Below are positions 8,373-58,990 of a stretch of DNA of 64,000 bases, piece by piece. Where the stretch lies: the IMG/VR virus record IMGVR_UViG_3300035659_001474, positions 21,110 to 85,109 of that record. One strand, 5' to 3'. The notes under the pieces are model-generated. The model ran no database searches, was not told where the DNA came from, and saw only the letters and a list, made by a program, of their open reading frames with translations. Positions within the stretch are counted from its first letter, which is position 1. Each line of letters starts with the position of its first letter. This stretch comes from a virus (Duplodnaviria; Heunggongvirae; Uroviricota; Caudoviricetes). The translations under genes and the position numbers were made by a program.

Positions 8373-9383
8373 TTATTCGTCTTCTTCACTAGCTTTCATG
8401 TTATGAATTGGTTTGATCTTATTCAGAATTTTTGCTGTAGGTTCTATAGCTTGCTCAATGAATGTTGAATCTTTGTACGCTCCTGGAGACTCATCAAGAG
8501 TAGCTTGTCCTACCGATGTAGAATAAATGCCTTCCATTTGTGATTTGAATGTCTCTACACTTAATTTTCTTTTAGCTTCTCCACGACTCAAAACTCTACC
8601 GGCTCCATGTGGCGCAGAAAAATTCCATTCTGGATTTGATTTACCTTCACAAACCAAAATACCATCTCTCATATTAAATGGAATAATCATGCGTTCACCA
8701 ATATAAGATCTAATAGCACCCTTTCGAATAATGAAGTCATGAAAATCGATAAAATTATGAACAGTGTCTATTTGATCTACGGGTGTCACTTTCAAAATGT
8801 CACATATAATAGACACTATATATTTTCGATTAACTTCAGCATAAATCTGAGAAAATATCATGTCAAACAAATACCCGGCAGCATCTTCTCCTTCTAACCA
8901 TTCACATCCCTTCATATCAATGTTAGGTTTAGCAACTGCTTTCAAAGCTTTGATCTTAGTATATAATTCTTTACCATCTTGAACAGTTTCTTTCAAGACT
9001 TTAATTTGCTCTTGAATAATAGACTGTCTGTCACATTTATGAAATTTCTCAGCTTTATTTTGCCAGTATTCACAAATACGTTTTCCAAAATTGCGACTGC
9101 CAGTATGAATCGTAATCCAATAATCTCCGTCATTACTAATGCCTGTTTCAATGAAATGGTTTCCTCCACCAATAGTGTCAATAGAATTTATTGCACGTCG
9201 AGTACTTCCACCAGTTGACTCATATTTCTCTAAAAACCAATTCATATCGTATTGAACTGGAGAAATGTCCCCAAATTTCTCTCGATATGCTAAAGCAAAT
9301 TTCTGAGCCAACACATTAGCCTGATGCCACGGAAATTCCTTTCTCCATATTGATGACAGAATTTTCATGCGTTTGCATGCCAA
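8373..9383 (-). CDS. rtcB: RtcB RNA ligase, C-terminal two thirds (in a different frame from the N-terminal part)
   Basis: RtcB motifs GGGNHFIE, HTGSRNFG and SAPHGAGR. The frame already matches RtcB at 'CKR', upstream of the annotated TTG start. Confidence 0.7.
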   Translation of the reverse strand: MACKRMKILSSIWRKEFPWHQANVLAQKFALAYREKFGDISPVQYDMNWFLEKYESTGGSTRRAINSIDTIGGGNHFIETGISNDGDYWITIHTGSRNFGKRICEYWQNKAEKFHKCDRQSIIQEQIKVLKETVQDGKELYTKIKALKAVAKPNIDMKGCEWLEGEDAAGYLFDMIFSQIYAEVNRKYIVSIICDILKVTPVDQIDTVHNFIDFHDFIIRKGAIRSYIGERMIIPFNMRDGILVCEGKSNPEWNFSAPHGAGRVLSRGEAKRKLSVETFKSQMEGIYSTSVGQATLDESPGAYKDSTFIEQAIEPTAKILNKIKPIHNMKASEEDE

Positions 9384-10785
9384 ACGGCACTCTTTGCCTA
9401 ATTCTATGATCTAACAACTCAAGAGTAATAGAAAGACTTTTTCCTATATTAAATGAAGTCATCCCGCAATTATGAACAAATACACCTGCAGCTAGTGCAA
9501 AGTTGCTATACTCTTCAATTGTCAAACAATATACATCTGTTGGTAAACAATCTATTAGTTCAATATTTTTTACAGAATGATTTTGTACCCGTTTAAAGTC
9601 TTTGAAAACTAATTTTAGATGCGCTGCATCAGTTTTTAATGCTTTTAGATGATTAAAGACACCAAAAGCGCTTTTAACTTGTGCATGACATATTGGACAT
9701 TCATATAGTCTATTACCTATTTCTGTAGACTTCTTTATTCCTTTTTCTGATTTAGAATAAGCAATCAAATATTCTCTGCCTCGTTTTCCGGCTAATTTTG
9801 CCATTTCTTTAAATTTATCTGTTTTACAAAATTCTTGAAATGTCTTAGCTGCTCTAATTTTTAGATTTTTGGCAAATTCTGGATCTTTGTGTAATGCACT
9901 CATTTTTTCTGATGACATTTTTGAAAATCTATCTCTATGCTTTTGCCACGTCCTTGTCCAACCGCCACTACCATCTTTATTTGCGATTAATGTATGACTA
10001 GCATGCAAAGTTCGATGATTAGCCCACGACATTCTGACAATATTTGTAGGATTATTATTATACTTATTAAAGTCATCGTGATGTCGAATAAATTTCGATG
10101 TTAATGCAACCATTCTATGACGAACATTGTAATCGTCCGCAAGCAAATGTATAAAATCATATAAATTTGTATATGGATTGTAAACTACAAAATACTCTTT
10201 TAACTTCCAACATTTATTAATCTTTGACAATTGTTCACGAACAACATCTTTCACTTTCACAATATATAATGGTAGTAATGACTGATTAACTGTTAATTGA
10301 TCAGCACGTGTTTCTTCATTGTTTCTCGTATAAAAAATCTGATCAATAGTAGAATAAATTGTTTCATTATTATCTAATGTAACTTTCGCAAGTCGATCGA
10401 CTGTTCTTGTTTTCTTGACAGATAATATTTTCGTAATTACAATATTGCCATGATCATCTTTAGCAAACACATAATTATCTTTATTAGCATTAAAATCATC
10501 TAATAATTCTAACATAGTTAATTCTTTATTATTTGCTAATTTAACTTTTGTATCTTGAGTAAAACATCCAATATCTACGCCCACAACATTGGGAATTGTT
10601 TTATCAGTCATTGGCATCGTAAATCCAATAACAGATCCTTTGCCTGCATGAGTATCAGGCATGATTGCAATTGGATTTGTAAATGCTGGATGATTTACAA
10701 AATTAGTAATCTGAGCAGCGCAAGACTGTTCAATTTGATCAATCATGACTTTTGCAGTTGTGTATTTGCCAGGATATTCAATCAT
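9316..10785 (-). CDS. rtcB: RtcB RNA ligase N-terminal extein, a ~366-aa intein, and a 50-aa C-extein segment
   Basis: MPDTHAGKG and VGVDIG are followed by an intein with an N-terminal Cys (CFTQDTKV...) and the C-terminal ...VFVHN|CGM junction. The C-extein reads CGMTSF..IRQRVPFG, matching RtcB DIGCGM...VPHG. Confidence 0.7.
   Translation of the reverse strand: MIEYPGKYTTAKVMIDQIEQSCAAQITNFVNHPAFTNPIAIMPDTHAGKGSVIGFTMPMTDKTIPNVVGVDIGCFTQDTKVKLANNKELTMLELLDDFNANKDNYVFAKDDHGNIVITKILSVKKTRTVDRLAKVTLDNNETIYSTIDQIFYTRNNEETRADQLTVNQSLLPLYIVKVKDVVREQLSKINKCWKLKEYFVVYNPYTNLYDFIHLLADDYNVRHRMVALTSKFIRHHDDFNKYNNNPTNIVRMSWANHRTLHASHTLIANKDGSGGWTRTWQKHRDRFSKMSSEKMSALHKDPEFAKNLKIRAAKTFQEFCKTDKFKEMAKLAGKRGREYLIAYSKSEKGIKKSTEIGNRLYECPICHAQVKSAFGVFNHLKALKTDAAHLKLVFKDFKRVQNHSVKNIELIDCLPTDVYCLTIEEYSNFALAAGVFVHNCGMTSFNIGKSLSITLELLDHRIRQRVPFGMQTHENSVINMEKGISVASG
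9469..10566 (-). mobile_element. intein inserted in the RtcB DIG|CGM motif, with an internal putative homing-endonuclease region (possibly HNH-like)
   Basis: The intein's splice-junction residues are a Cys at residue 74 and a terminal HN before the +1 Cys. The 366-aa insert contains a central basic, His/Cys-containing domain (ECPICHAQV..FNHLKA). Confidence 0.6.
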
Positions 10786-11210
10786 TTCTTAATTCCAACT
10801 AGAATAGGATCAGGAATTGGTATTTCAATTCCTATTGGACGCCATAAATGTAAACAATATGGATGTTGATTCACATATAGACTTTTTGGTGGATGAAATT
10901 GAAATACTGCATCTTCATCGTCCCAAAATAGATCTTTTACTTGACTCATTTCAATCCAATTCGGACATCGATTCTGCAATGACACTGAAACATGCTCCCA
11001 ACCAAGACCGTCACTAGCTATAGTAGTTACTACAGTACCAATCTTAGTCGGTATGTAAAATGCGCCATTGTTACCATAAGAGTCATCACTTGCATAATCG
11101 CCATCACCTCGTATTCGATGTCTATTTGGTACGTGAAACACGCTTTGTCCAAATGTTGAAATTACTGAGTTTGTATAATGAAATGACTGTATCAATGACT
11201 TCTTGATCAT
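10782..11210 (-). CDS. hypothetical protein
   Basis: ORF track. The ATGA overlaps the rtcB start. Confidence 0.35.
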   Translation of the reverse strand: MIKKSLIQSFHYTNSVISTFGQSVFHVPNRHRIRGDGDYASDDSYGNNGAFYIPTKIGTVVTTIASDGLGWEHVSVSLQNRCPNWIEMSQVKDLFWDDEDAVFQFHPPKSLYVNQHPYCLHLWRPIGIEIPIPDPILVGIKK

Positions 11211-11787
11211 CTGTGTACTTTGTATAAAGCATAGTCTTCAAATCAGGTTTGTTTCCAACTTTATCAGAACCGTCTTTGATCTCAGTTTTTCTGTTCTTGA
11301 AAGCGTCCACAAAATCGCAAATAGATATGATTGTGGAAATCTCTAGAACTTTTTTAATAGTTGACGGCGACCAATTCTCAGGAAAAGCATTTTGATCTAA
11401 ACCGTACCCAGCTTTGTAAAGATTATGATGCAAACCCGCGCAAAGTGCCGTAAACATGTGAAGCTTTTTGAGAGCCTTATAACCTGCCTGAGCATGAGTC
11501 TTGACATGATCATACTCTATAGCATCTATATTGCGTCCATCAAATAGTTCTGCAGGCAATAGAAGCTTGCCGGCATCATGTAAGAGACCTGCAAAGAAAG
11601 CCGCTTTTGCATCTTTACGTAGAGCTTTTGCAGTGGCTTCTGCAAGTAAAGCTACTCTTTCCAAGTGATCTTTTGTAGAAGCATGATTGACGTCACACAT
11701 TGCTAGAATCAAACGAGCAGTATGAGCAAGATCACCCTTTGGATTGTATGTTCGAATTTTTGATTCAATCAACGTAGATCGCTTCAT
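11122..11787 (-). CDS. HD-domain phosphohydrolase
   Basis: H..H...AGLLHDAGK motif and a downstream HH pair. Confidence 0.55.
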   Translation of the reverse strand: MKRSTLIESKIRTYNPKGDLAHTARLILAMCDVNHASTKDHLERVALLAEATAKALRKDAKAAFFAGLLHDAGKLLLPAELFDGRNIDAIEYDHVKTHAQAGYKALKKLHMFTALCAGLHHNLYKAGYGLDQNAFPENWSPSTIKKVLEISTIISICDFVDAFKNRKTEIKDGSDKVGNKPDLKTMLYTKYTDDQEVIDTVISLYKLSNFNIWTKRVSRTK

Positions 11788-11788
11788 A

Positions 11789-12442
11789 TCAAAATTCCTT
11801 TGGATCGTAATCCAAACATTCTTTCTTCAAACGATTTAGTTTCTTTGGACAATATGGCATGTCGAATCCAACTTCTTTAAGTATTACTACATTTTTGCAA
11901 TTTTCACATCGTTCTATTGCATATTCTAATAGTCGAGTTTCCCATTGTTCATCTTCCTGATAAGCTCGACAAAAATCTGGAAATAGTTCGACTTTTTGCG
12001 CACATCGATAAATGGTCTTACCTATTTCTATATCGATCATCTCATGATATTCACAATTTCCACAGCGATCCATTGCTGCATCACGACTTTCATGCTCTAC
12101 TGAATGCATAAGATAATCAGATTTACCCTCATCTGATTCTAGGTAAGTTTGGGCATCTATACCAGCTGACTTAAGCAATTGAAAAGACTGATCAACAAAT
12201 TCTTGCTCTCGTGTCAAAATTTCTTCAGGTGTTTGTTCTAATGTCTTAAATCGAGTTAATCGATACACTCGACTAATCAACTGTGCTTTCAATTCTGCCG
12301 GTGTTTTCTGTGAATTCAAAAAGTTAGTATAACATTGAGGTGAACAGCATCTATAGTTAACTAACATCTCACCATAGACACGAATTATTTCTTTGACATT
12401 AAATTGTTTACTGCAGACTCTACAAGTTAATTGGTTTTGCAT
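11789..12442 (-). CDS. CxxC-rich zinc-binding hypothetical protein (real start MQNQLTCRVC)
   Basis: The ORF-track entry 11789..12712 runs on through a tRNA gene. The tRNA translates as ...LVEQQLLDLRVVGSNPARG, a typical tRNA read-through artefact. The first ATG downstream of the tRNA is at 12440-12442. Confidence 0.45.
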   Translation of the reverse strand: MQNQLTCRVCSKQFNVKEIIRVYGEMLVNYRCCSPQCYTNFLNSQKTPAELKAQLISRVYRLTRFKTLEQTPEEILTREQEFVDQSFQLLKSAGIDAQTYLESDEGKSDYLMHSVEHESRDAAMDRCGNCEYHEMIDIEIGKTIYRCAQKVELFPDFCRAYQEDEQWETRLLEYAIERCENCKNVVILKEVGFDMPYCPKKLNRLKKECLDYDPKEF

Positions 12443-12474
12443 ATAGATATAATCAGTTGAAAAAGCTATGAAAA

Positions 12475-12547
12475 TGCCTCGAGCCGGATTCGAACCGACA
12501 ACACGCAGATCTAGAAGCTGCTGTTCCACCAATTGAACTATCGAGGC
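12475..12547 (-). tRNA. tRNA with anticodon CUA (amber suppressor); isotype not assignable
   Basis: Manual fold has a perfect 7-bp acceptor stem (GCCTCGA/TCGAGGC), a D arm with GG, the anticodon loop TT-CTA-GA, a 5-nt variable loop, the T loop TTCGAAT and discriminator A. CCA is not encoded. Confidence 0.8.
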
Positions 12548-12554
12548 ATTCTCT

Positions 12555-12860
12555 TCATGCAAGTGGTAGAGATTTGAAAATCTCACCAGTGTCATAGCAA
12601 GCCATAGCTGTTGGTCTATTCTCCTGATCTGGTTCAATAAAAGTCGTAGACTGTTTATTTTGCAGACATAAGAGACTTGACCATTGCTCAATTCCACTTG
12701 CAAAACGGACACCTAAAAATATCAAATGCCCATTATTCCACTGATGAAATATTTCAGGATATCTCAGTGCAAAAGCTGCCAATGCATGAGCACCCTGCAC
12801 ACAACGATATGTTTCATCCAGATCACTACGCACAAGCACATACATCTTTGGCTTGTCCAT
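12555..12860 (-). CDS. PTH2-type (archaeal/eukaryotic-type) peptidyl-tRNA hydrolase-like protein
   Basis: KMYVLVRSDLDETYRCVQGAHALAA matches the PTH2 motif KMVLVVRxDLxMGKGKIAAQCSHAA. The start is probably the internal MDKPKM; the ORF track gives 12555..12938. Confidence 0.5.
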   Translation of the reverse strand: MDKPKMYVLVRSDLDETYRCVQGAHALAAFALRYPEIFHQWNNGHLIFLGVRFASGIEQWSSLLCLQNKQSTTFIEPDQENRPTAMACYDTGEIFKSLPLA

Positions 12861-13119
12861 GTTGGATCTCCTGGATGAATTGTTGAACAATGTCCATGTT
12901 CGGTTCATTACCTTCACGAGGCTTCTCAATGCACTCATACGGCGTTCCTCTCAGAATGCAGTAAGCAATATGCTTGAGCCGAATATGTGATTTCATTATG
13001 TGCAATTGACATTGTTTTAATGCGCTTGCGGTAGTGTGAGGTTTTGAAAGTTCGACTTTAGACTGTCGAATCTCGAGGGCTTTAGTCTTGAGTTCATTCT
13101 TAAGAATTGTCAAATCCAT
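12826..13119 (-). CDS. hypothetical protein
   Basis: ORF track. Confidence 0.3.
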   Translation of the reverse strand: MDLTILKNELKTKALEIRQSKVELSKPHTTASALKQCQLHIMKSHIRLKHIAYCILRGTPYECIEKPREGNEPNMDIVQQFIQEIQHGQAKDVCACA

Positions 13120-13778: not shown

Positions 13779-13783
13779 TGAAA

Positions 13784-13854
13784 GCCACTAGGAGGATGCG
13801 AGCCCCCGACCGACTGCTTACGAAGCAGTTGCTCTACCAGCTGAGCTATAGTGG
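13784..13854 (-). tRNA. tRNA-Thr (anticodon CGU)
   Basis: Manual fold has acceptor GCCACTA/TAGTGGC, a D loop with GG, the anticodon loop TT-CGT-AA and the T loop CTCGCAT. Confidence 0.8.
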
Positions 13855-13867
13855 CAATTTCAAAAAC

Positions 13868-13942
13868 TGGAGACGGCGGGGAGAATCGGACTCCCGGTAT
13901 CGGTTTTGCAGACCGAGGCTTTAACCACTTAGCTACGCCGTC
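13868..13942 (-). tRNA. tRNA-Cys (anticodon GCA), CCA encoded
   Basis: Manual fold has acceptor GACGGCG/CGCCGTC, the anticodon loop CT-GCA-AA, the T loop GTCCGATTC and a 3' TCCA. Confidence 0.85.
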
Positions 13943-14227: not shown

Positions 14228-14319
14228 TGGCGGAGAATACAGGATTCGAACCTGTGGAGGTTTTTAAAGTCCTCACTACGTTAGCACCATAGAGCCTTAA
14301 ACCACTCGGCCAATTCTCC
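14228..14319 (-). tRNA. tRNA-Ser (anticodon GCU), type II with a long variable arm, CCA encoded
   Basis: Manual fold has acceptor GGAGAAT/ATTCTCC, a 3-bp D stem, the anticodon loop GT-GCT-AA, a long variable stem (GTGAGG...CCTCCAC) and the T loop TTCGAAT. Confidence 0.85.
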
Positions 14320-14655
14320 GTGCTGAATATGTCGCTTTTCTTGAATTGTTTTTTCATCGAAGTATTTTCTTGGATTACCACATCCCATGCATGAGCAAAG
14401 TTTCGTCGTATGTCTATGACGTCGTTCAGATTTTGTCACCCATTCAGGATGTTGCAATTTCGTAAGCTGACTGTAAAAGTTGACTACACGTTTCTTACTC
14501 TTCTTGACTCCAACAAGAAAACGTTCTTTCCTGTTCACTGGATGTGACATGATGACTCCTTTTGTTAGCGCCACTAAGTGCGCGTTCATGTGGATGCCAT
14601 CATGTACTCCTTTCAGTGTATTTGTCTGTAAAACAATTGCCGCAAGCACTGTCAT
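14281..14655 (-). CDS. doubtful ORF whose C-terminus is a translation of tRNA-Ser
   Basis: The ORF ends ...GELAEWFKALWC, which lies inside the tRNA. Any real coding part would be shorter, or the ORF is spurious. Confidence 0.2.
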   Translation of the reverse strand: MTVLAAIVLQTNTLKGVHDGIHMNAHLVALTKGVIMSHPVNRKERFLVGVKKSKKRVVNFYSQLTKLQHPEWVTKSERRHRHTTKLCSCMGCGNPRKYFDEKTIQEKRHIQHGELAEWFKALWC

Positions 14656-14679: not shown

Positions 14680-14951
14680 CTGGCGAGAAGGGACTCGAAC
14701 CCCCAACCATCTGGTTACACTTATCCACATATTTTTATGTGGCGTGGACTTTCTCTTCACCTTGTCTATTACTAGATTTAGGTGCACCGTGTAAAGTCTC
14801 TACACATAAGAGCTTTTTTTACTCTCTTGCTCGGGATTGCCATAGATAGATTCCTTAGGTTTCCCCGACTTAGCGGCGTGTTCATCTAAATATTTCTATT
14901 TAGAGCTGCGTTTACCCACAGCCAGATGCTCTGCCATTGAGCTACTCGCCA
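14680..14951 (-). tRNA. tRNA interrupted by a group I intron in the anticodon loop. Exon 1 is 14918..14951 and exon 2 is 14680..14717. The best reading is tRNA-Asn (GUU); tRNA-Thr (UGU) is the alternative.
   Basis: The 5' half reads TGGCGAG-TA-GCTCAATGGCAGAGC-A-TCTGG-CTGT. The 3' half reads TAA-CCAGA-TGGTT-GGGGGTTCGAGTCCCTT-CTCGCCA-G. The acceptor pairs perfectly (TGGCGAG/CTCGCCA) and the anticodon stem is TCTGG/CCAGA. The splice site follows a U, and the intron ends in G. Confidence 0.7.
14718..14917 (-). ncRNA. group I self-splicing intron (IC3-like, tRNA anticodon-loop type)
   Basis: The intron contains GGGGAAACCTAAGG, a GGCAATCCCGAGCAAG Q-like element, a GTGTAGAGACTTTACACGG R/P7-like element, CCTAAATCTAGTAATAGACAAGG and GAAAGTCCACG. 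All are close to the Azoarcus and Anabaena tRNA intron cores. A 6-bp P1 can form between exon GGCUGU and intron GCAGCU. Confidence 0.7.
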
Positions 14952-14974: not shown

Positions 14975-15050
14975 TGGTGGCTGCGTCCGAAGTTGAATCG
15001 GAGGCCTCTTGTGCTTCAAACAAGCGCTCTACCGACTGAGCTACACAGCC
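14975..15050 (-). tRNA. tRNA-Phe (anticodon GAA), CCA encoded
   Basis: Manual fold has acceptor GGCTGTG/CGCAGCC, D arm GCTCAGTCGGTAGAGC, the anticodon loop TT-GAA-GC and the T loop TTCAACT. Confidence 0.85.
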
Positions 15051-15274: not shown

Positions 15275-15440
15275 ATAATCAAAATTATCAAAAGATGTTC
15301 AATTATTTCTCAAAATATTAATCATATATATAGTCGTAGAAAAACCATTGCTTAATTATTGTTTGATTTCTATCACTCTAAATATGATGACAGTCATAAT
15401 CGTTGTTAAAATATAGCAACATAACTGAAAGGATGTCAAA

Positions 15441-20101: not shown

Positions 20102-23100
20102 GTGTATTTTTATCTGACTTAACAGTCTTTGTCATAAGTAGTGGTCACAATCCTTGCTATGATGCATGCTTGCAGTCATTAAACTCTCAAACAGTTTCAT
20201 TTAAGATTGAAATTATCAAAGATGTTCATCCGATGTCAAAGGCCTTTCAATGTATGATCGATTCTTGCAAAACTCGATACTATATTGAAATTGATGAAGA
20301 TATGGTCATGAACGCAAATGGTATTGAAATCCTACACAAGTATGCTATTCAATCTGCACCAATGACAGCTATGATTGCCTGTAAATTGATTGATGTGCAT
20401 TTGAATTTTGAAATTTATGGTGTCAAGATTTACAAGCATGACATACTTAAGAGATATCCATACGATTTGTCCTCAATGTCATGTGAAGTTGAACAAATTG
20501 ACAGAATGAAAAATGATCAATATAAAGTCGCATTAATGACTGATGTAGTCGGTCAACATGCGCCTTATTGGTCTAATGAAGGAATATTTGATAGATATCG
20601 CAATTTACTTGACAAATTCAAACAGTTTAGATATCCCTGGACAGGCGATCTACCTGCAAAATTGTGGTCAATGTTGAAAACTCAGCCAACTGAGCAGAAC
20701 ATGTATGCTTTACTTGGTGCATATACTAGTTTGATCACAGAAACTGTTCAAGTAGGAGAGAAAGACTTTAGAAATAGAAATGCGCCATTTGAAACAATGA
20801 GAAGCTTCATGAATCCTCCTGTTAGTGCGAACTTGTATCTAACATCAAAATGTAATTTCAATTGCAAGTTTTGTTATCGTAATTCTCAATTAATTGAACA
20901 GTCTATTGACATGACGCTAAAAAGCGTTAGTGACTTGTTAATAAGATATCCGTCAATTAGAGGCGTTTGTTGTGCTGGCTATGGAGAACCATTTTTATGC
21001 GATAGTCTTTTTGACATCATATCATTTCTAAAGTCAAAAAATAAAGTTGTCGGACTAATAACAAACGGATCACTAATAGTTGAAAACATCAATAGTTTGT
21101 TAGCAAACAGACCGGACTATATATCTATTAGCTTGAATGCGTCTAATGCAAAAATACATAGCGAAATAAACAAGTCATTTACGTTCGATACTGTACTACA
21201 AGGTATAAGACTCTGCGTAAGCAGTGGATTACCTACCTACTGTTCGTACGTATGCACCAAAAGCAATTTACAGTATATTCCTGAATTTTTGAAATTAGTA
21301 GACTCTTTAGGTGTAAAAACTGTGCACTTACTAAATTTGTTGCCACACTTAGCAAGTGACTATGACGACAAATCATTTTGGCAAGAAGTATTGACGAATG
21401 ATGACAGACGCAAAATTGATGCATTACAAGAACTTCCTGAAGCTCATTTAATCAAGCTGTACCCGACGCTAATAAATCGTAACGAAATTCAATGTAATTG
21501 TCAAATACCATGGACTACAATAGGTATAAACGGTAATGAAAGCGTGACATTCTGTGGATCAGTTTATGCGCCAGATAGAGCTAATGGGTCACTTAAGAAT
21601 TTTGAAAATGTTTGGTTAAATAAGAGTGCTAGAGAATTAAGAACTAATTTATGTGATGTCAATACGATGACTGACACGTGTAAAATGTGTTTTAGAAATT
21701 GCAACTCGTATAATCCACCAGCAAAACAAATAGTGTCACAACCTAAGCAAATTCCAAAAAAGCTTAAAGTTTGTAAAATTATTGATCAATTTGGTTGGGC
21801 CTATTACTTTGTTGCGAAAGAACAGCAATTATATTCTTCGCATGACATCACGTACAAACGACTGTTAGATGTCACTGACATCGATGCAGACATAGTATAC
21901 ATTCATGCACCAAATATTGATCACGCTAAAATCAATAGTCTTGTTTCATCATTAAAGCAAAAAGGTATCAAAGTTATTGGTGGTTATGGCGGAGAATCAA
22001 AACTAAAATATGACACTAATCCGGATCTTATAGTATCAATATCGATGAGACATATTGACTGCTTGAACAATATGTACCCCAATAAACCTGTTGTGTTCCT
22101 GCCAGAATCAATTGACACCAGCTTCTTTACTGCAGCTGTAAAAGATGACAATAATTTTATAGTTGGCTGGGCAGGCTGCTTGCGCGATGTAAAACGACCT
22201 CACTTACTAGACAAACTAAAATTCAACGTTGTTAAGAAAAATGACTGGGGCAAGCAGTTTTTCTCTGATGGTAGATTACTAGACGACATGAAGTCATTTT
22301 ATCATTCAATTGATGTACTAGTATTGACAAGTATTAGCGAATGTATGCCAAGAGTAGTATTAGAGGCTATGTCATGTGGATTGCCTGTAGTTTCTACAAG
22401 AGTTGGTTGTATTGGAATGCTACTGGACAAAGACTGGATTGTAAGTGTATTACCTGAAGAAAATGTTATTTCAGAAATGAATCATAAACTTTCATTGCTA
22501 AGTAATAGTAAGTCACTACGACAAGAAGTAGGCAAAAGAAACAGACAACACATTTTGAAGTTTTTTAGTTGGGCAGCTAATCAAAAATTATGGGATAGAA
22601 CATTTGAACTAGTTATGCAAAACAGATTCAAAGATATAGCAGTTCTTAGTGATGAATTTATACAGTCATTACCAAATTCAAACGAATTGCAATTCAATAA
22701 TTTGGACATGCAGACCGAACAAACTAATTTTCCAGAATTAATTCAATGTGAATTAGTCAAATGCGAACCGGTCTTACAGCAACCTAAATTAGAACCTGCA
22801 TCTAATGTAGAATTAGTAAAAATTGAAACTCGTCTTGAACCATCTAAATTCAAAAAACCAGTATTCATATCCTACTACACGAAAAATACGGGTTATGAAA
22901 ACGAATATAAAAAATTGGAATCATCATTAAAACGATTCAGTCTAGATTATGAAATAGTTGGCATTGATTCACAAGGCAGTTGGTTCAACAATTGCTTCTA
23001 TCGCACAACATTTGTCAAAGACATGCTAAACAAACATGGTCGACCTGTAGTATGGGTTGACTGCGATGCAATAATACAACAAGATCCACAGTTACTTTCT

Positions 23101-25805: not shown

Positions 25806-26012
25806 TCAAACTATTAGCCTCATTGATGGAAAATACAAACCCGACGATTCGATGTTCATCCACTGTCTAAGAAGAATACGTCTATGACATTCACTATGGC
25901 ATTCGCCTGTACAACTGATTACTGCTGGATCAGCGCTCAACTGTGTTACTAGAGAAATGATTGTAGCTCTCGTATTTTGTGGTAAATTATGCAGTCTTTC
26001 TTTTATGTTCAT
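25806..26012 (-). CDS. hypothetical protein
   Basis: ORF track. Confidence 0.3.
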   Translation of the reverse strand: MNIKERLHNLPQNTRATIISLVTQLSADPAVISCTGECHSECHRRILLRQWMNIESSGLYFPSMRLIV

Positions 26013-26814
26013 TTTGTTGGACCTGTCCCTCTTTGAATTGTCTTAACAACTTTGCCTTTATTTGCCGAACACGCTCTCTAGTAATGTTCAATTTAGAACC
26101 AATTTCATCTAAAGTTTGCGGTGCTTCATGAAACCCATAATACCACTCAATAATACTTCGATCACGATCAGAAAGACCATCTAGTATTTTTGTGATTTGT
26201 TTTTTGATTTGTGCATCTGAATGATTTTGATTCATTTCATTTACAAAAGTAAAATCACTCAACAAGTCATAACCAGTTCTTGAATCATCGATAGGAGCAT
26301 CTAAAGATTGTGGTTTATTTATAAGTAGCAGTAATGGCCCTATTTCAGTCCCAAGATGAGTTTCTATTTCATGTTGCGTCGGCATCCTATGAAGCATACC
26401 CAACAATTTATCACGAGTTTTTATTACATTTACTAGTTTGACTGTTTGATTGATGGGTACTCGAACCGGTCTTGAATGATCAGCAATACCTTGTAAAATA
26501 GCTTGTCGTATCCACCAAACTGCATAAGAAATGAATTTGAAATTCTTTGTCTCATCAAATCTCTTAGCAGCGCTTACTAATCCTCTATTTCCCATTTGTA
26601 TCAAATCTGGTAATTCAATACCTTGATGTTGATAATTGACTGCCACAGAGACTACAAATCTCAAATTTGATTCTATGAGTTTATTTAGTGCTTTAGTGTC
26701 ACCACGACGAATAGCTTTAGCTAATTTAGATTCATCGTCTGAAGACAATAGCTTGTACTTCTGAATCTGCTTCATGTATATAGCTAAAGTCTCTGCAATC
26801 TCTTTTTGCATCAT
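25987..26814 (-). CDS. sigma-70 family RNA polymerase sigma factor
   Basis: A region-2-like segment (DLIQMGNRGLVSAAKRFD...YAVWWIRQAI) and a region-4 HTH (SDRDRSIIEWYYG...QTLDEIGSKLNITRERVRQIKAKLLRQ). Confidence 0.75.
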   Translation of the reverse strand: MMQKEIAETLAIYMKQIQKYKLLSSDDESKLAKAIRRGDTKALNKLIESNLRFVVSVAVNYQHQGIELPDLIQMGNRGLVSAAKRFDETKNFKFISYAVWWIRQAILQGIADHSRPVRVPINQTVKLVNVIKTRDKLLGMLHRMPTQHEIETHLGTEIGPLLLLINKPQSLDAPIDDSRTGYDLLSDFTFVNEMNQNHSDAQIKKQITKILDGLSDRDRSIIEWYYGFHEAPQTLDEIGSKLNITRERVRQIKAKLLRQFKEGQVQQNEHKRKTA

Positions 26815-27067: not shown

Positions 27068-27649
27068 CTATTGTCTTAAATTACCTATAGAATCTGCTGC
27101 TTTGTTACTTGTTCGTGGTAACCACTTCACTCGTTCATTTTGAATGCCATTGACTACAGACAAACTGTCATTGTAAACTGTCAATGTTGCATGCATTGTC
27201 AAGCCAAGAACTATTGCTTGACGTTCTGCATCAGAATTGCAATTTACTTCAATGAGTCTTGACTTAGCATCAATGTTCGTGCCGTCAACAACAATAGCAG
27301 CAATTTTTGCTTTGCCATCTTTGAACCCAGAATCTGTGAATATAGCAGATCCAATTGTTTGTGCTGTCTTTTCACATTGATTCATGAATTTAGCGACATC
27401 AAGCATCTCTTGCATTTTTTCGACGCTAGTTTTAACCTCTGCCTTTATATGATTCACAATAAAGCTAAGTGATACTTGCTCATGTGTTTCCCGATCACCA
27501 GCCATTTTGAGTTTGATATATCCTATTTTGCTAATCCAAATGTCGTGAGGTCCTTTACTCGATGTAATTTGTACGTGATATTGTGATCGTACAATAACAC
27601 GATCACCAAAAACTTCTGCCAATCGTTTGACAAGCGTTGTGACATTCAT
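27068..27649 (-). CDS. RNase H-like domain protein
   Basis: The C-terminal AAIVVDGTNID...ERQAIVLGLTMHA..LTVYNDSLSVVNGIQN matches the RNase H D..E..D pattern. Confidence 0.4.
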   Translation of the reverse strand: MNVTTLVKRLAEVFGDRVIVRSQYHVQITSSKGPHDIWISKIGYIKLKMAGDRETHEQVSLSFIVNHIKAEVKTSVEKMQEMLDVAKFMNQCEKTAQTIGSAIFTDSGFKDGKAKIAAIVVDGTNIDAKSRLIEVNCNSDAERQAIVLGLTMHATLTVYNDSLSVVNGIQNERVKWLPRTSNKAADSIGNLRQ

Positions 27650-33295: not shown

Positions 33296-34021
33296 CTACA
33301 CTGCTATTATCTTCAATTTTCTTCTTATCAATTTGACGTCCATTAATCTTCTAGTAATAGTCATTCGTTTTTGTTTTATCTTTTTTCCCTTATTTAATTT
33401 GACACGACTACTAATTAGCAGTCTTGTTTTTAAAGAATGTGTTTTACCAAAAAAATTATTATTTTCTCCTCTTCGATTTAAACTCATTTTCTTTCTAGTT
33501 TCTAAAGAATGCCTAAATCCTTTTACTGAAGCTCTAATTTTTGCTTTAGTTTCTTCAGACACTATTCTAGTCTTATTAGATTCAATAATTCGTTGTCTAT
33601 GTCGTTTAGTGAGCTTTTTACCATAAAATGGATTATTTGAACCGTTTCTTTCAACTGTCGCAAGTAAACCTTGACCTCCATCAGTTCTATTTACTAGTGG
33701 CCCTTTATTCATGTCAGCACGACCAATTTGTCTTATTAAAGAGATTTCTACTTTGCAACTTTTATTATCAGTAAGACCATGACGTAATATAGTAATAATG
33801 GGTTGTTTTCCTGATCGCAGAATTTTTTTAATTTTATTTATTTTGTGATTACGTATTGAAAAGTTTAATTGTTTTTTTGCACTTTGTAAATGACTTTTAT
33901 ATCGTTCATTAATACCTTTACCAATGTAAAATGGTTCATATAAAAAACAAATACTTCGATATGTATATTGCCCAGGTTTATTAGGATTCAAATATGCATA
34001 AACATAAAACTCTTTTTTCAT
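33296..34021 (-). CDS. GIY-YIG homing endonuclease with NUMOD repeats
   Basis: YVYAYLNP...PFYIGKG (GIY-YIG), then repeated SEETKAKIRASVKG / ETRKKMSLNRRGENN (NUMOD3-like). Confidence 0.8.
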   Translation of the reverse strand: MKKEFYVYAYLNPNKPGQYTYRSICFLYEPFYIGKGINERYKSHLQSAKKQLNFSIRNHKINKIKKILRSGKQPIITILRHGLTDNKSCKVEISLIRQIGRADMNKGPLVNRTDGGQGLLATVERNGSNNPFYGKKLTKRHRQRIIESNKTRIVSEETKAKIRASVKGFRHSLETRKKMSLNRRGENNNFFGKTHSLKTRLLISSRVKLNKGKKIKQKRMTITRRLMDVKLIRRKLKIIAV

Positions 34022-41929: not shown

Positions 41930-42265
41930 TTATTTTCTCAGTGATCGGACAGTTACTGATTTTATTTTGACCATCGGGTCATTAAGTCTGAGAACACCTT
42001 TCCACGACAATAGTGCATCTCGAGTATAGTCAATAACTTCTTGCATCGTAGCATCAGGTACTGTGATACTTACTTCAAGTCTTTTCTTATTTGATTTGCT
42101 TTTGTCAGGTAGTAATGTTAGATGAGACCAGTTAAAAGTTACTCCCGCTGGTAAACCATGCTCTTTAGCAATCTTACGTATTTTCTGATTTGCATACTTT
42201 CTAATCTCACTATGTACGTTCATTTGCGTCATCCTGTTCAAATAATTCTTGCGGATAACGTTCAT
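41930..42265 (-). CDS. hypothetical protein
   Basis: ORF track. Confidence 0.35.
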   Translation of the reverse strand: MNVIRKNYLNRMTQMNVHSEIRKYANQKIRKIAKEHGLPAGVTFNWSHLTLLPDKSKSNKKRLEVSITVPDATMQEVIDYTRDALLSWKGVLRLNDPMVKIKSVTVRSLRK

Positions 42266-42278
42266 TGTGTTTTTTACA

Positions 42279-43262
42279 TCAATCGTAAACTAAATTTTGT
42301 TGCGATTGTGTGGCTTTTTTTCCATCGCCAACGAAATATGAATTCTTACCAAGGCCACCAATCTTAAGCCAACCAAGATTTTCCAGCATGCTTTCAGATT
42401 TATTAGCTATGTAACCAGTATCATCTTCATAATCGTGATTACCTAACGTTGCCCTTATGATTCTTTCAGCCATGTAAATATGACAAGCATACTCACATCC
42501 GTAAAACTGTCCATCAGGACTGACCCAACCAAATTTTGATTTTAATTCAGAATCAACAATCGGTCGTTCTAACTCTATCTGCTTTTCTTTTGCTTGCTTA
42601 TCTACTTTACGCTCTGAAACTATAACATCTTCTTCATCATATTTCTTTCGAAAAACTATCGGTAGGTCTTCACTGCTATAACGAACAAAATAGCCATCTT
42701 CTTGCAGTCGCCCGCAAGCATTCACTGCATGTTGTGGTATCTTCTCAACATCCATCCAGACCGGCGGTGCTACTGACTGTTCAAACAGTACACAATGCAT
42801 CTCATGATCAGGACATTTAAGAAAGAATATCTTATCTTTAGACTTGTTTTTGCAATAAAATCTTGCCCTAGTATTATGAATTTCTTGCCCTTGTTCAGCC
42901 TGAAAATTCTTTTGACTATCATTGTAATATGAAAAATCTTGATACCCATAAGAAGTCACATAAGAATATGGTATGTACCATTGATGACCAATACGTACAT
43001 AATATCCGTACATCTTATCAAGTTTTTGCATATATTTGACATCTGATTTTTTAGCTAAACTCACACCAACTTTTGAATCACCAGTAAATTCAACGGTGCC
43101 TGACAATACTGACATGATAGTATTGTAGTCTATTCCAATCAGAGACTTGTTCAAGAATCTGACAGCACTTTCCCATTCACCTTCCAAAACTAAATCTCTG
43201 GAATGACGAGTTACAAACTCACCAGTAATTGTAAAACAGACATGCTCTATTGTTGAATTCAT
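42279..43262 (-). CDS. hypothetical protein
   Basis: ORF track. Confidence 0.4.
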   Translation of the reverse strand: MNSTIEHVCFTITGEFVTRHSRDLVLEGEWESAVRFLNKSLIGIDYNTIMSVLSGTVEFTGDSKVGVSLAKKSDVKYMQKLDKMYGYYVRIGHQWYIPYSYVTSYGYQDFSYYNDSQKNFQAEQGQEIHNTRARFYCKNKSKDKIFFLKCPDHEMHCVLFEQSVAPPVWMDVEKIPQHAVNACGRLQEDGYFVRYSSEDLPIVFRKKYDEEDVIVSERKVDKQAKEKQIELERPIVDSELKSKFGWVSPDGQFYGCEYACHIYMAERIIRATLGNHDYEDDTGYIANKSESMLENLGWLKIGGLGKNSYFVGDGKKATQSQQNLVYD

Positions 43263-46683: not shown

Positions 46684-47513
46684 GCGTCCTCCTCTTGCAA
46701 CTTTTTCATCAATGCTTTAGCATTCTCATTGGCATTATTATGACAATCAGTCCATGAACACCATTTACAATTATCACTAATTCTCTTTTCAAAGTTATTT
46801 GCTTCTATCGCATCAAACATCTTGTCAACTTTTTTCATCACAACATAATAATCTTCATCTGTAACCTTCACATCAACTATTCTATTCTCTTTCTTGGACG
46901 GATGCACAAACCTCACACAATCTTCAATCATATCAAATTGTCTGGCAATAGCCCAACTATAAAGTATAGCCTGCAATCTATATTTCTCTTCACTATGTTT
47001 TCCTGTCTTCCAATCTAATATATAGACTTTGCCATTTACTTCAATAAGTAAATCAATATATCCGTGAACATCAATCTCAAATCTACTATTATTATATGGT
47101 TGCTTAAATTCAATTTCTGATCCGATTGATTCATGCAACCAATCATTTGCTTTAGCCATCGCAACCCAATTTTTCAATAATGTGAAACCAGAACCTCTTG
47201 CATACTTCAATTCTAACTTTTCAGCTTTCTGAACTTTAACCTCTATATCAAAAAATCTCTGCCAATTCTGGAACAAATCATATACTCTGAACATCTTTTG
47301 CTTGTAAAATGAATCTAATAATTTATGAAATGCTTGACCAAGAACTAATGCTGTACTTGGTACTTGAAAAGTTGGGCGTTTAAGAATTTTGTCTTGCTTA
47401 AACGCCCATGGACATGTACAGAAGTAGTTAATCGTTGATGCAGATAAGTTAAAGTCAAGTTTTTTCAACATTCTTCCTAACTGTGTCAGACAGCCATTTA
47501 GTAGCCTTTTCAT
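46680..47513 (-). CDS. Cas4/RecB-like PD-(D/E)XK nuclease with a Cys cluster
   Basis: GYIDLLIEVNGKVYILDWKTGK (D..E.K), an N-terminal Cys and a C-terminal CKWCSWTDC. Confidence 0.6.
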   Translation of the reverse strand: MKRLLNGCLTQLGRMLKKLDFNLSASTINYFCTCPWAFKQDKILKRPTFQVPSTALVLGQAFHKLLDSFYKQKMFRVYDLFQNWQRFFDIEVKVQKAEKLELKYARGSGFTLLKNWVAMAKANDWLHESIGSEIEFKQPYNNSRFEIDVHGYIDLLIEVNGKVYILDWKTGKHSEEKYRLQAILYSWAIARQFDMIEDCVRFVHPSKKENRIVDVKVTDEDYYVVMKKVDKMFDAIEANNFEKRISDNCKWCSWTDCHNNANENAKALMKKLQEEDA

Positions 47514-48798
47514 GTTTCACAGCTGTTTCACTTGCACGATAATTCGTGTCTTTCTTCAAATTCTCAAGCACGCCCTTAATCTCTTCTTCACTCTTATTAA
47601 GAGTTTTTGCACGACCAACTACAAATTCCTCAACTTCTTCCTTAGATGCTGTGAAATTATTGATCTTACAAACATGATCCAAAAATATCTTCACTTCAAG
47701 AGACTTTTCAACTCGAGGTCTCTTCTGACCATAAAACACGTCTTTACCATTCTTATTCTTCTTCAAAAACTCTTCCTCAGTTGTACCCATACGATACAAC
47801 AACTGGTGCCATTCATTAGCAAGTTCCCACTCAATCATAGCTGTCGGTATCGGCTCAATCTTTGCCTTCAACACACATTGCGTCAATATGTCTGACTCGT
47901 AGTTCTCTTCATCAATACGTGCATAATCAGCTATAAGCTTATCATGAATTGATTGTCTAAATTCGTCTACAGTCTTGCCTTCATCAATAGCCAATTGTTC
48001 AAGAGTCTTTGGCAACTTTGAATTGATCTTGTTAATTTTCACTGTGAATACAGCATCTTTGTCTTGTAACTCTTTTGCATGATAATCTGTTGGGAATCTA
48101 GTAATGACCTTACCTTCTTCATTCAACTTGAACTTGATCATCTGTTCTTCAAACCCACTAATGAATTTAGTCTCACCGACTACAAACCTAAAATTCTTAG
48201 CAGTACCACCTGAAAAAGCTTTACCATCAACTTGACCTGAAAAATCTATTATCAAAACATCGCCAGTCTTAATCACATAATTTGCATCAGTGATATTCTC
48301 AAACAAAGCCTTTGAACTTTGTTGCGCCTTAATCTGATCTTCAATCATCTGCTCTGAAACCACTGTTACATTCTTAACAGCGCTAACTTCATTAATATCA
48401 AATTTCTCAACTGTCGGTTTCAAATATACTGTAGCTTGTATTGTCAATGGTATGTTGTCTTCAAAGGGACCGACAATTTCAAAATCAGAAGCATCGACAA
48501 CGTCAACTCCTAATTGTTCAACCGCCTTCTTATACAGAATATCAAACACTTCTGAATAAGATGTGTACTTATTGAAGTGAGGTTGTTTTTCAGCTACTTC
48601 ACGAGGTACATTACCTTTTCTGAAACCATTTGCTGAAATTGTTGGCTTGATCTTATCGTATGCAACATCAACTAACTTCTTGACTTCTTCAGGACTCTCG
48701 ACTAACCGAATCTTGTAAGGTGTTGCTTGTCTTTTCAATTTAGCTTCCATTTGCATCTCCTCCACAGAGAAATTTGAATTTAGCCGTCTTGTCAACAA
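47455..48798 (-). CDS. tig: trigger factor (ribosome-associated chaperone)
   Basis: An N-terminal ribosome-binding region with GFRKGNVP, the trigger-factor signature, a central PPIase-like region and a C-terminal arm. Confidence 0.7.
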   Translation of the reverse strand: MLTRRLNSNFSVEEMQMEAKLKRQATPYKIRLVESPEEVKKLVDVAYDKIKPTISANGFRKGNVPREVAEKQPHFNKYTSYSEVFDILYKKAVEQLGVDVVDASDFEIVGPFEDNIPLTIQATVYLKPTVEKFDINEVSAVKNVTVVSEQMIEDQIKAQQSSKALFENITDANYVIKTGDVLIIDFSGQVDGKAFSGGTAKNFRFVVGETKFISGFEEQMIKFKLNEEGKVITRFPTDYHAKELQDKDAVFTVKINKINSKLPKTLEQLAIDEGKTVDEFRQSIHDKLIADYARIDEENYESDILTQCVLKAKIEPIPTAMIEWELANEWHQLLYRMGTTEEEFLKKNKNGKDVFYGQKRPRVEKSLEVKIFLDHVCKINNFTASKEEVEEFVVGRAKTLNKSEEEIKGVLENLKKDTNYRASETAVKHEKATKWLSDTVRKNVEKT

Positions 48799-52796: not shown

Positions 52797-53338
52797 TTCT
52801 TGCTATTTTCTTTCTATGCTTTGACAAATTAAAAACCCATATACTCTTTTTGATTACTAGCGGCTGCGCCGCGGAGCCAAACTATTCTGTGTCGCTTAGT
52901 TTTCTCTCTTTATGTTCTTAAACTTTTTAGAATCATCGTAAGATTGATTGATTTTGCATCTCAATCGATACGATTGTCTTAATTTATTTTCTGCAACTTT
53001 CACGTTATATCTAGATGAAGATAATTTAGATAGTTTAGGTTAATAACTACTATATTCGACGACCTTCAATAATAGTTTATATGTTAAAATTTATCATTGA
53101 TTTTACTTGGCTTATCAGACAATCATGTATTAACCAAGTAATACTTATCTAAATTTCTCATTCTTAGTTGTTCTCAATATTATAGAATATTCTGTAGATT
53201 GTGAATTGCAGTCTGATGACATGCAGAGCATTGCTCGAATCGCTCTATTGTCTTACAATATATTGAGTCAGATGGTGTCGTAAAACTCACTTTTCTTATA
53301 AGTCAAATAGAGTCAAATAGTATCTTAGCTCTATAGTA

Positions 53339-53562
53339 TACACGCGCGAGTGCGTTAGCGAAGTACATTTTTTTCACTTTCGCTGACAGACAGTTATGAA
53401 ACTTAAAAAATACCATTTTCAAGATTTGATTCAATCGTAAATCGAAAATGCTTACGCGCGATATAAATTAACGCGCGGGAATTTGGCGACATTGACAATT
53501 GCTTATTAACTCCACGAGATCAGAAAAATAAATCAAATTTCTTTACGCGCGATACGCGCGTT
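53339..53562. promoter_or_regulatory. cluster of ACGCGCG / TTACGCGCGATA motifs in a long non-coding region (candidate origin/iteron or regulator-binding array)
   Basis: Five CGCGCG cores within ~220 bp of an otherwise AT-rich spacer, plus the tandem repeat agtcaaatag×2 at 53303..53322. Confidence 0.35.
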
Positions 53563-53574
53563 CAAAAACTCGAC

Positions 53575-53604
53575 AATAAAAAAGACACTATTGCTAAGTG
53601 TCTT
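53575..53604 (-). terminator. rho-independent terminator (minus strand) after the upstream gene block
   Basis: The minus-strand reading is AAGACACT-tagcaat-AGTGTCTT followed by TTTTTTATT. Confidence 0.55.
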
Positions 53605-53629
53605 CTCTCTTCAATCAAATGCCAAACTA

Positions 53630-58759: not shown

Positions 58760-58771
58760 TATTTGCTCCTG

Positions 58772-58990
58772 CTACGATAGAACTATGTTAGCAAATTCTT
58801 TACTAATTGTACAAGAGTGTTTATGTTTTTGAATTGCTCGTTCTTGACGTAATGCTTTTTCTTTAGAAGGATATCGACCAAGTAATTTAGAGCCATCACT
58901 AGTATAGAGACAAATTTTTTGGTCTTTATCAGACCGACTATCTTTGTCTTTTTTCTTACAAGGTTTGATTACTGATTCTATATCTTTCAT
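58772..58990 (-). CDS. small basic hypothetical protein
   Basis: ORF track. Confidence 0.3.
   Translation of the reverse strand: MKDIESVIKPCKKKDKDSRSDKDQKICLYTSDGSKLLGRYPSKEKALRQERAIQKHKHSCTISKEFANIVLS

Follow-up and report, generated by a model that had tools for sequence, protein, structure and literature searches.

We describe here an amber-suppressor transfer RNA (tRNA) gene of an uncultivated virus of the Caudoviricetes, which lies on the minus strand of a 64,000-nucleotide stretch of DNA (IMG/VR record IMGVR_UViG_3300035659_001474, positions 21,110 to 85,109; this whole stretch is referred to as the window). The gene encodes a canonical tRNA with the anticodon CUA, it is conserved at the same position in a diverged sister lineage of the phage, and it resides in a genome whose sequence, as far as we could see it, gives no support for reassignment of TAG to an amino acid. 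Its immediate surroundings are these:

12475-12547, minus strand: amber-suppressor tRNA, anticodon CUA, 73 nucleotides, A73, no encoded CCA (ARAGORN, Rfam RF00005, fold, syntenic sister copy)
12512-12514, minus strand: anticodon C34-U35-A36 within the 7-nucleotide loop U32 U33 CUA G37 A38 (Rfam alignment and ARAGORN drawing)
12443-12554, no strand: intergenic gap of 112 nucleotides that houses the CUA tRNA (sequence, gene ends, sister alignment)
12555-12938, minus strand: upstream neighbour, 127 amino acids, ends in TGA (12555-12557) 8 nucleotides before the tRNA (weak PHROG matches only, no Pfam match)
11789-12442, minus strand: downstream neighbour, 217 amino acids, ATG at 12442-12440 (no PHROG or Pfam family match)

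That this is a real canonical tRNA with a CUA anticodon is confirmed by ARAGORN and by the Rfam tRNA covariance model (RF00005), in agreement with the original prediction of a 73-nucleotide minus-strand tRNA. ARAGORN called five tRNAs in the window, all on the minus strand, including one with the anticodon cta at 12474-12548, for which it drew eight acceptor pairs, the extra one being a U-A pair that the U before G1 could form with A73. The covariance model aligned to 12475-12547 on the minus strand over its full length (model positions 1-71 of 71) with 58.0 bits (E = 6.4e-10), a score that exceeds the gathering score of 29 bits and falls between the lowest and the highest scores of the four phage tRNAs nearby (50.6-66.4 bits). 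In both programs the loop has seven bases and U33 is followed by C-U-A as positions 34-36; a different register that would give a sense anticodon was seen in neither.

From its 5' end the tRNA reads GCCUCGA UA GUUC AAUUGGUG GAAC A GCAGC UUCUAGA UCUGC and continues GUGUU GUCGG UUCGAAU CCGGC UCGAGGC A to its 3' end, and every structural element that the original prediction had listed is present: an acceptor stem with seven of seven pairs, a 4-base-pair D stem (GUUC/GAAC) with G18 G19, the T loop UUCGAAU (TTCGAAT in the DNA), a 5-nucleotide variable loop (GUGUU) and the anticodon loop UU-CUA-GA. U8, A14, G18 G19, U33, G53 U54 U55 C56, A58 and C61, the conserved tertiary nucleotides, are likewise all present, and the minimum-free-energy fold of the isolated 73-mer is the cloverleaf (-24.9 kcal/mol, with a modest z of -1.8 against shuffled sequences). 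The window allele does have blemishes: C31 and U39 are mismatched at the foot of the anticodon stem, U50 and G64 form a wobble pair, and positions 21 and 37 hold an unusual G instead of A; G37 beside A36 is unusual for a tRNA that reads codons starting with U. The exact sequence of the CUA tRNA had no match in IMG/VR, JGI metagenomes or GTDB genomes.

The open reading frame (ORF) that runs through the tRNA at 11789-12712 had been taken for an artefact, and it is one: an upstream GTG extends the 217-amino-acid gene across the tRNA, which is flanked by the real genes at 12555-12938 and 11789-12442. The exact 217-amino-acid protein was also called on a 128,327-nucleotide JGI contig, on which other window proteins were found too, and it has no relatives in IMG/VR.

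Conservation is the part of the evidence that speaks most directly to function. Using protein clusters at least 90% identical to window proteins, we found a sister lineage whose contigs in ENA, JGI, Logan and IMG/VR, up to 113 kilobases (kb) long, share the gene order of the window at 78-90% nucleotide identity. Seven sister contigs from different samples carry the CUA tRNA at the identical position, after the same five tRNAs. The sister allele is one sequence in all seven contigs and scores 69.3 bits with RF00005; its anticodon stem is paired throughout and bears the textbook loop CUCUAAA, and its register is unambiguous. The two alleles differ at 28 of 73 positions, six stem pairs being altered on both sides and still pairing (97.6% of cells were paired in the comparison of the two alleles), and the seven acceptor pairs, A73 and the anticodon are identical, with almost identical adjoining flanks. 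We considered whether the two suppressor alleles are exceptionally diverged and rejected this, as the sense tRNAs of both phages are equally diverged (53-95% identity) and retain their anticodons; we likewise rejected a swap of the window-allele core from the phage's own tRNA-Trp, the tRNA-Trp of the lineage being dissimilar. The suppressor thus behaves as a selected member of the tRNA set, since its anticodon was kept, its stem changes are compensatory and the sense tRNAs diverge alike. This pattern indicates that selection maintains a putative UAG-reading tRNA, and conservation across lineages is the strongest evidence for such a function.

Other huge-phage contigs also bear CUA tRNAs, with unrelated bodies, which fits repeated independent origins. 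Among loci linked to the RNA ligase RtcB that are at most 65% identical, two have an unrelated CUA suppressor with U73, and none of these loci looks recoded; an IMG/VR phage with a similar-bodied CUA suppressor (L016) has no in-frame TAG locally.

The original prediction saw in the suppressor a marker of stop-codon reassignment and held that the genes of the window end in TAA or TGA where checked. The latter proved incorrect. In a greedy set of 82 window genes, 44 end in TAA, 24 in TGA and 14 in TAG, and in the 93 genes of the merged 75.7 kb the counts are 47, 29 and 17; this longer sequence comes from the Logan assembly of SRR11721627, where the same genome is present in contigs of about 16 kb that are 100% identical over the overlaps and extend the window. 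TAG therefore makes up about 18% of stops, with no depletion, and in segments of the sister lineage it terminates 8 of 28 and 11 of 63 genes. When stop-to-stop ORF sets were built with TAG, TGA or TAA as sense, reading TAG as sense lengthened no long window gene, which agrees with the original prediction that recoding is not visible in the window, and the requisite tabulation under both codes gave a coding coverage of 0.941 under genetic code 11 versus 0.945 with TAG as sense. There were no TAG-bridged ORFs in the gaps between window genes. The NAD-dependent ligase matches its family profile through its last residues and then meets TAG, which is therefore a genuine stop in this gene. When orthologues of the two lineages are compared, TAG is replaced by TAA or TGA, and either of these by TAG; in the ligase gene itself the stop is TAG here and TGA in the sister. 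Back-up stops are no closer after TAG-terminated genes than after others (Mann-Whitney p = 0.45, Fisher p = 0.20). Of the 82 window genes, 77 would count as 'dual-coded' if judged as in Mgcod, by stop positions less than 30 nucleotides apart. Among about 60 window proteins scanned we found neither a release factor (RF2) nor an aminoacyl-tRNA synthetase domain.

The same holds where late genes begin, just right of the window, at which place the sister has a baseplate wedge protein (PHROG 6, E = 2.6e-24). The sister's tail and baseplate ORFs of 728, 699, 1197, 1881, 154, 494, 1183 and 2157 amino acids are intact under code 11, and this region of about 8,500 codons, at 98% coding density, contains zero in-frame TAG. 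TAG is a stop codon there too, as it terminates three of seven genes in the late region of one sister segment (L131) and, in the phage of the window, the homologue of the sister's 2157-amino-acid protein, whose C-terminus was seen. When about 80 kb of the sister was searched for TAG codons within reading frames, with coding scores and with tblastn alignments running across stops, all that emerged were artefacts over tRNAs or antisense frames. Across the roughly 155 kb covered from two lineages, reassignment of TAG is not supported by the coding sequence, and TAG appears to be an ordinary stop; the view of the suppressor as a marker of reassignment finds no support there, with no in-frame TAG needed in 75.7 kb and none in the sister sequence.

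A single exception was met among about 105 genes. Every TAG was scanned for coding signal on both sides, which left one credible case besides that at 58772. The latter, an apparent fusion by read-through of a 72-amino-acid ORF (58760-58990, minus strand, TAG end) to a 958-amino-acid ORF lying 12 nucleotides downstream in frame, was rejected; it is probably coincidence, since the second ORF has its own AGGAG-N7-ATG start at 58772. Read-through of the TAG of 27068-27649 into 62 open codons was rejected as well, as the frame shows no coding signal over the extension, which the next gene overlaps in another frame. The credible case lies in the left extension of the window, on contig L001:

L001 13154-14020, plus strand: zinc-finger/Vsr-like nuclease with an in-frame TAG, 8.1 kb left of the window start

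The nuclease ORF at L001 13154-13780 encodes 208 amino acids and is followed by TAG and then by 79 in-frame codons that have no start codon of their own, over which the coding score is at least as high as in the gene body. A database search gave 116 relatives, which are zinc-finger proteins with a Vsr/DUF559-like domain, a mobile kind of nuclease often met in phage regions rich in tRNAs. The TAG falls inside the conserved domain; in each of the 21 aligned homologues the protein runs on through this point, and beyond it our gene retains the family-invariant residues ...QVQ(N/T)RD.IK...GY..Y.I.D. No other member among the 116 is truncated. Of the 21 homologues, 12 have Lys at the column aligned with the TAG, 5 have Gln, 2 Glu and 2 Asn, and Lys is the residue in the two closest. 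The alignment suggests that this TAG is either read through or a very recent nonsense mutation. The suggestion of the original prediction that TAG targets lie elsewhere in the genome has thus gained one candidate, which may itself be a recent pseudogene.

An interruption by the opal codon TGA was seen in the same genome. At 42212-43262 on the minus strand, a 327-amino-acid gene at 42279-43262 stops at TGA (42279-42281), which is aligned with a conserved Trp of the sister orthologue, and 22 conserved in-frame codons follow up to TAG-TGA. We saw no opal suppressor tRNA. Here, too, the alignment leaves two readings, a nonsense truncation or natural read-through of UGA as Trp.

The amino acid that the suppressor might insert can be approached through its body and its identity elements. 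In BLAST the tRNA came closest to tRNA-Trp genes of phages, with which it shares about 80% identity over 55-59 nucleotides; its anticodon stem, its GUGUU loop, its D arm and position 26 resemble theirs, and its acceptor has G1-C72 and A73. The same D arm and T loop together are found in Thr, Gly and Gln tRNAs of bacterial genomes, the exact acceptor stem with A73 is found in phage Phe (7), Ile (6) and Met (3) tRNAs, and the nearest neighbours of the core sequence among 305 tRNAs compared belong to five isotypes (Gln, Trp, Arg, Thr and Phe). As these four patterns conflict, we rejected a single isotype for the body. The resemblance to Trp/Gln-type bodies that had been read from the D arm is thus partial: there are the Trp matches, but the D arm and T loop are shared with Thr and Gly tRNAs as well as Gln, and A73 and G1-C72 do not belong to the bacterial identity set of Trp or Gln.

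In Escherichia coli, U35 attracts both glutaminyl-tRNA synthetase (GlnRS) and lysyl-tRNA synthetase (LysRS), A73 favours LysRS, and GlnRS is favoured by G73, U1-A72, G2 and G3. Bacterial tryptophanyl-tRNA synthetase (TrpRS) needs C35 and G73, and bacterial tRNA-Trp has A1-U72 and G73. The CUA tRNA has U35 and A73, and it is without G73, U1-A72, G2 and G3 and without C35. The inserted residue would most likely be Gln or Lys; it could be Lys rather than the usual Gln, if the nuclease column, A73 and U35 reflect charging by LysRS. A library of phage tRNAs with CUA anticodons has been assayed in E. coli cell-free extract, where 90 of 162 were active and 42 of 162 inactive ('orthogonal'), and 28 of 29 such tRNAs analysed inserted Gln or the nearly isobaric Lys (PMC12636597). 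Our gene is of the same class as that library, and its G37, A73 and 31/39 mismatch could equally mean that it belongs with the inactive ones.

The explanation that we favour, at about an even chance of being correct, is that the gene is a functional amber suppressor, retained by the lineage within a set of 20-27 phage tRNAs, and that it gives partial read-through in a huge phage which uses the standard code and has few targets for it among its own genes. The gene, its structure, its conservation and the standard coding of the sequence covered are observed; that it is expressed and charged, how well it suppresses and what benefit is selected are inferred. In this model the CUA tRNA would be transcribed with the tRNA array, possibly from a sigma-70-like promoter at about 15.4 kb, and would be processed, CCA-tailed and charged by host enzymes. 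The charged suppressor would then compete with release factor 1 (RF1) at UAG and insert its amino acid. Partial read-through would let a small number of TAG-interrupted phage genes be expressed, of which the nuclease is the one seen and of which others, for example lysis genes, may sit in the unseen part of the genome; the cost would consist of short C-terminal extensions on TAG-terminated genes.

Several observations weigh against this explanation. The window allele carries G37 instead of A37 in addition to the C31/U39 mismatch, and both are expected to weaken a suppressor tRNA. The nuclease may be a recent pseudogene, as the same genome has the in-frame TGA at a conserved Trp described above, and the sister lineage, which still keeps the CUA tRNA, does not have the nuclease gene, so this gene cannot explain the conservation of the tRNA. 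Moreover, if suppression were efficient, about 18% of the proteins of the phage itself would be extended, and there is no excess of nearby back-up stops after TAG. Finally, the sequence seen is probably under half of the genome, and head, terminase/packaging and lysis genes were not found in it.

This last point leaves some room for recoding of the code-15 type, in which the unseen late modules (head, packaging, lysis) would hold many TAG codons read as Gln and the window would be the early, 'dual-coded' block. Suppressor tRNAs with a CTA anticodon (Sup-CTA) are strongly linked to TAG recoding in published surveys, recoding in jumbo phages has been reported in hallmark-gene regions only (PMC13037316), and the dual coding of the window genes and the relationship of a conserved protein to Lak phages and a 735-kb phage would suit this idea, as would the fact that head, terminase and lysis genes were not seen. 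We nevertheless regard it as distinctly unlikely: the TAG-free codons of the sister's tail and baseplate genes and the TAG-terminated genes beside them belong to a late region, TAG accounts for nearly a fifth of stops and is exchanged with TAA and TGA, no RF2 or synthetase was seen in the proteins scanned, and Lak phages recode even their replication genes, which are not recoded here. A suppressor that is directed at the host or at competitors, flooding the cell so that host, defence or co-infecting-phage mRNAs ending in TAG are read through and takeover is aided, would account for conservation in two lineages in which no shared TAG target was seen. This idea has been proposed for Zeta crAss-like phages that have Sup-CTA and no recoding (PMC12386605), and the CUA tRNA does lie among functions of a takeover type (sigma factor, ADP-ribosyltransferase, trigger factor and tRNA repair); yet the suppressor would also hit the phage's own TAG-ended genes (about 18%, among them a large tail-module gene and that of the ligase), which back-up stops do not protect, unlike in Zeta crAss phages, where TAG stops are rare and followed by another stop (PMC12386605), and we therefore consider this explanation rather unlikely.

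The blemishes of the window allele might instead be those of a neutral passenger or a decaying gene, a sense tRNA that mutated to CUA and is carried without function. The anticodon-stem mismatch and G37 would fit such a gene, and the same genome contains a degenerate 63-nucleotide tRNA (35 bits) and nonsense codons in two conserved genes. An anticodon and acceptor stem that are identical over about 20% genome divergence, six compensatory stem changes, scores of 58 and 69.3 bits, well above threshold, and the textbook loop of the sister make decay very unlikely. That the gene is no suppressor at all, being a pyrrolysine tRNA or having another register with a sense anticodon, seems to us extremely improbable. 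ARAGORN does label it 'tRNA-Pyl', and the 31/39 mismatch would allow a drawing with a 9-nucleotide loop, but the label derives from the anticodon alone, CUA is central in a 7- or a 9-nucleotide loop, and the sister loop is unambiguous. A tRNA-Pyl has a 6-base-pair anticodon stem, a 3-nucleotide variable loop and a small D loop without G18 G19. In the CUA tRNA the D loop is normal and contains G18 G19, the variable loop has 5 nucleotides and the anticodon stem has five positions, and there are no pyl genes in the window.

Returning to a functional suppressor, one may go further and speculate that it was kept through about 20% divergence for a purpose other than reassignment of the phage's own code, with TAG still ending about one fifth of genes, a proposal that we make only tentatively and hold to be less probable than not. 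Within it, the benefit could consist of read-through in the host or in competitors, of the timed expression of TAG-interrupted selfish or lysis genes, or of the rescue of CAG-to-TAG or AAG-to-TAG damage.

Suppressors of this kind are known from code-15 phages such as Lak, crAss-like and Garnet/Amethyst phages (Borges et al., 10.1101/2021.08.26.457843; Mgcod, 10.1101/2022.06.29.495998; Peters et al., PMC9523058), in which 26-71% of genes have in-frame stops and, in Lak phages, replication genes are recoded too. The phage of the window resembles these in being a very large uncultivated phage with a canonical phage CUA tRNA among tRNAs in a standard-coded early region. In contrast to them, its replication, tail and baseplate genes were seen without in-frame TAG, and TAG is an abundant and interchangeable stop; its CUA tRNA is not similar to a Lak-like suppressor, and RF2 was not seen. 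Sup-CTA also occurs in phages with the standard code, namely in clade 8 of the Zeta crAss-like phages and ctE7s22 (PMC12386605), and standard-code relatives of recoded phages carry it as well (10.1101/2021.08.26.457843). The Zeta crAss-like phages, in which a suppressor is conserved across diverged genomes without detectable reassignment, are the best match to our phage. Unlike in those, where TAG stops are reportedly rare and always closely backed up, TAG ends about 18% of genes here with no back-up signal, and our phage is a huge phage outside the Crassvirales whose metagenome contigs match environmental JGI samples, not the gut.

Classical suppressors include E. coli supE (tRNA-Gln with CUA), su7 (tRNA-Trp with CUA, mostly charged with Gln) and the psu amber suppressors of T4. 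As in these, an elongator body is combined with CUA, would compete with RF1 and would give partial suppression with UAG remaining a stop; but whereas they are laboratory or strain mutants of sense tRNAs, we find a conserved wild-type gene, and, unlike supE and su7, its acceptor (G1-C72, C2-G71, C3-G70, A73) is without the acceptor identity elements of E. coli GlnRS and TrpRS. Both this kind of gene and its occurrence without recoding therefore have precedent.

The suppressor is the last gene of an array in the order Phe-Asn-Ser-Cys-Thr-Sup, which is listed here together with other features of the window:

14975-15050, minus strand: tRNA-Phe(GAA), first gene of the array, with G37 (ARAGORN, Rfam; also in the sister lineage)
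14680-14951, minus strand: tRNA split by a group I intron of about 200 nucleotides (about 14718-14917; Rfam Intron_gpI, 58.8 bits, 14725-14929)
14228-14319, minus strand: tRNA-Ser(GCU) (ARAGORN, Rfam; also in the sister lineage)
13868-13942, minus strand: tRNA-Cys(GCA) (ARAGORN, Rfam; also in the sister lineage)
13783-13855, minus strand: tRNA-Thr(CGU) (ARAGORN, Rfam; same order in the sister lineage)
15410-15439, minus strand: sigma-70-like promoter match TTGACA, 18 nucleotides, TATATT, with TG (consensus scan, 11 of 12)
11122-11787, minus strand: HD-domain protein beside the tRNA block (Pfam HD, E = 1.2e-7), TAG-terminated here and in the sister
8373-10785, minus strand: RtcB RNA ligase (tRNA repair) with an intein containing an HNH nuclease, downstream of the array (PHROG, Pfam, frame analysis)
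25987-26814, minus strand: sigma-70 family factor gene
47455-48798, minus strand: full trigger factor gene

The promoter upstream of the array is a consensus match alone, with no evidence of function. The intron-containing tRNA is interrupted in its anticodon loop, and splicing in silico gives Asn(GUU) or Thr(UGU); we take the spliced form to be tRNA-Asn(GUU), as predicted in silico, the sister having an uninterrupted tRNA-Asn(GUU) in that place. The intron was not listed by the first Rfam search of the whole window at gathering thresholds. In the sister lineage a DUF559 nuclease gene lies between the Phe and Asn tRNAs, and the tRNA-Asn has no intron. The loop of tRNA-Phe(GAA) is UUGAAGC, with G37 as in archaeal and eukaryotic tRNA-Phe and not the bacterial A37; G37 is common to the suppressor and this tRNA, and other phage tRNAs for codons starting with U have A37.

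With 13 further tRNAs in the left extension, and five plus the intron-split one in the window, the phage has at least 19 tRNAs, and the sister phage has 27 within 34.5 kb. The degenerate 63-nucleotide tRNA-like sequence mentioned above lies at L001 9356-9418 on the plus strand and was missed by ARAGORN; it has the acceptor stem AGGCGUG, G73 and an encoded CCA, and it appears to be without the 3' half of the anticodon arm and without a variable loop, where the sister has an intact tRNA-Trp(CCA). An intact Trp or Gln tRNA was not seen in 76 kb of the phage. Two other tRNAs on the plus strand of L001, a 'Lys(CUU)' of 91 nucleotides at 8691-8781 and an 'Ile(UAU)' of 87 nucleotides at 14297-14383, combine long extra arms with anticodons that were not expected; each exceeds 50 bits in Rfam, and the sister counterpart of the first has 91 nucleotides and the anticodon UUU.

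In RtcB, Pfam Intein_splicing covers residues 83-439, and the C-terminal part is in another reading frame with an overlap at 9316-9383, which could be due to a frameshift, to a second insertion or to an assembly error. RtcB is uninterrupted in the sister, where it is 387 amino acids long and only 29-39% identical. The sister's DEAD/ResIII helicase has an intein in contigs L123 and L124 (16430-18958, 842 amino acids) and none in L122 (15886-17337, 483 amino acids). The inteins of RtcB and of the helicase, the tRNA intron, a GIY-YIG nuclease (window 33296-34021) and several DUF559 nucleases point to very active traffic of selfish elements. The sister also encodes a peptidyl-tRNA hydrolase (PTH2) fused to a zinc ribbon (L116 13203-13718), and the left extension of our phage encodes an ADP-ribosyltransferase.

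With the standard bacterial code, coding sequence takes up 94% of the window, whose G+C content is 35.7%. Its replication and repair proteins comprise the NAD-dependent ligase, DnaB, a DnaC-like loader, a helicase, PolX and nucleases, and its other genes encode, besides the sigma-70 family factor and trigger factor, an M17 aminopeptidase, a radical SAM protein, a methyltransferase and a glycosyltransferase. A partial protein at the far right end had no match in a homology search. Between a DnaD-like loader gene and the helicase-adjacent gene of 135 amino acids lies a non-coding stretch of 834 nucleotides (52797-53629, 32.8% G+C), which has no ORF under any code and no Rfam match at gathering thresholds and could be an origin or a regulatory region. 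Judged by protein similarity, the phage is a huge phage and a distant relative of Lak phages and of a 735-kb phage, as its conserved 525-amino-acid protein is 37.6% identical to that of the uncultured 735-kb phage LR756501 and about 33.5% identical to those of Lak phages; megablast gave no match to a close GenBank phage at the DNA level. We also noted that HF994194.1, a scaffold of 117,793 nucleotides named 'Prevotella sp. CAG:1092', has an 8-kb stretch with 20 tRNAs, including a CUA suppressor, at 34% G+C, and looks like a Lak-type megaphage contig binned as Prevotella.

Suppressor tRNAs of phages usually flag an alternative code, and annotation pipelines switch codes on them. In this phage the suppressor is real and conserved, but the standard code is used by every gene that could be checked, whether early or of the tail and baseplate, and code 11 should be kept in the annotation of this contig. 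With our findings, the few reported cases of a suppressor in the absence of recoding extend to a second phage group, unrelated to the first and distinct from it by its abundant TAG stops. Two natural alleles and one candidate natural target together provide an experimental handle on why phages with the standard code keep suppressor tRNAs.

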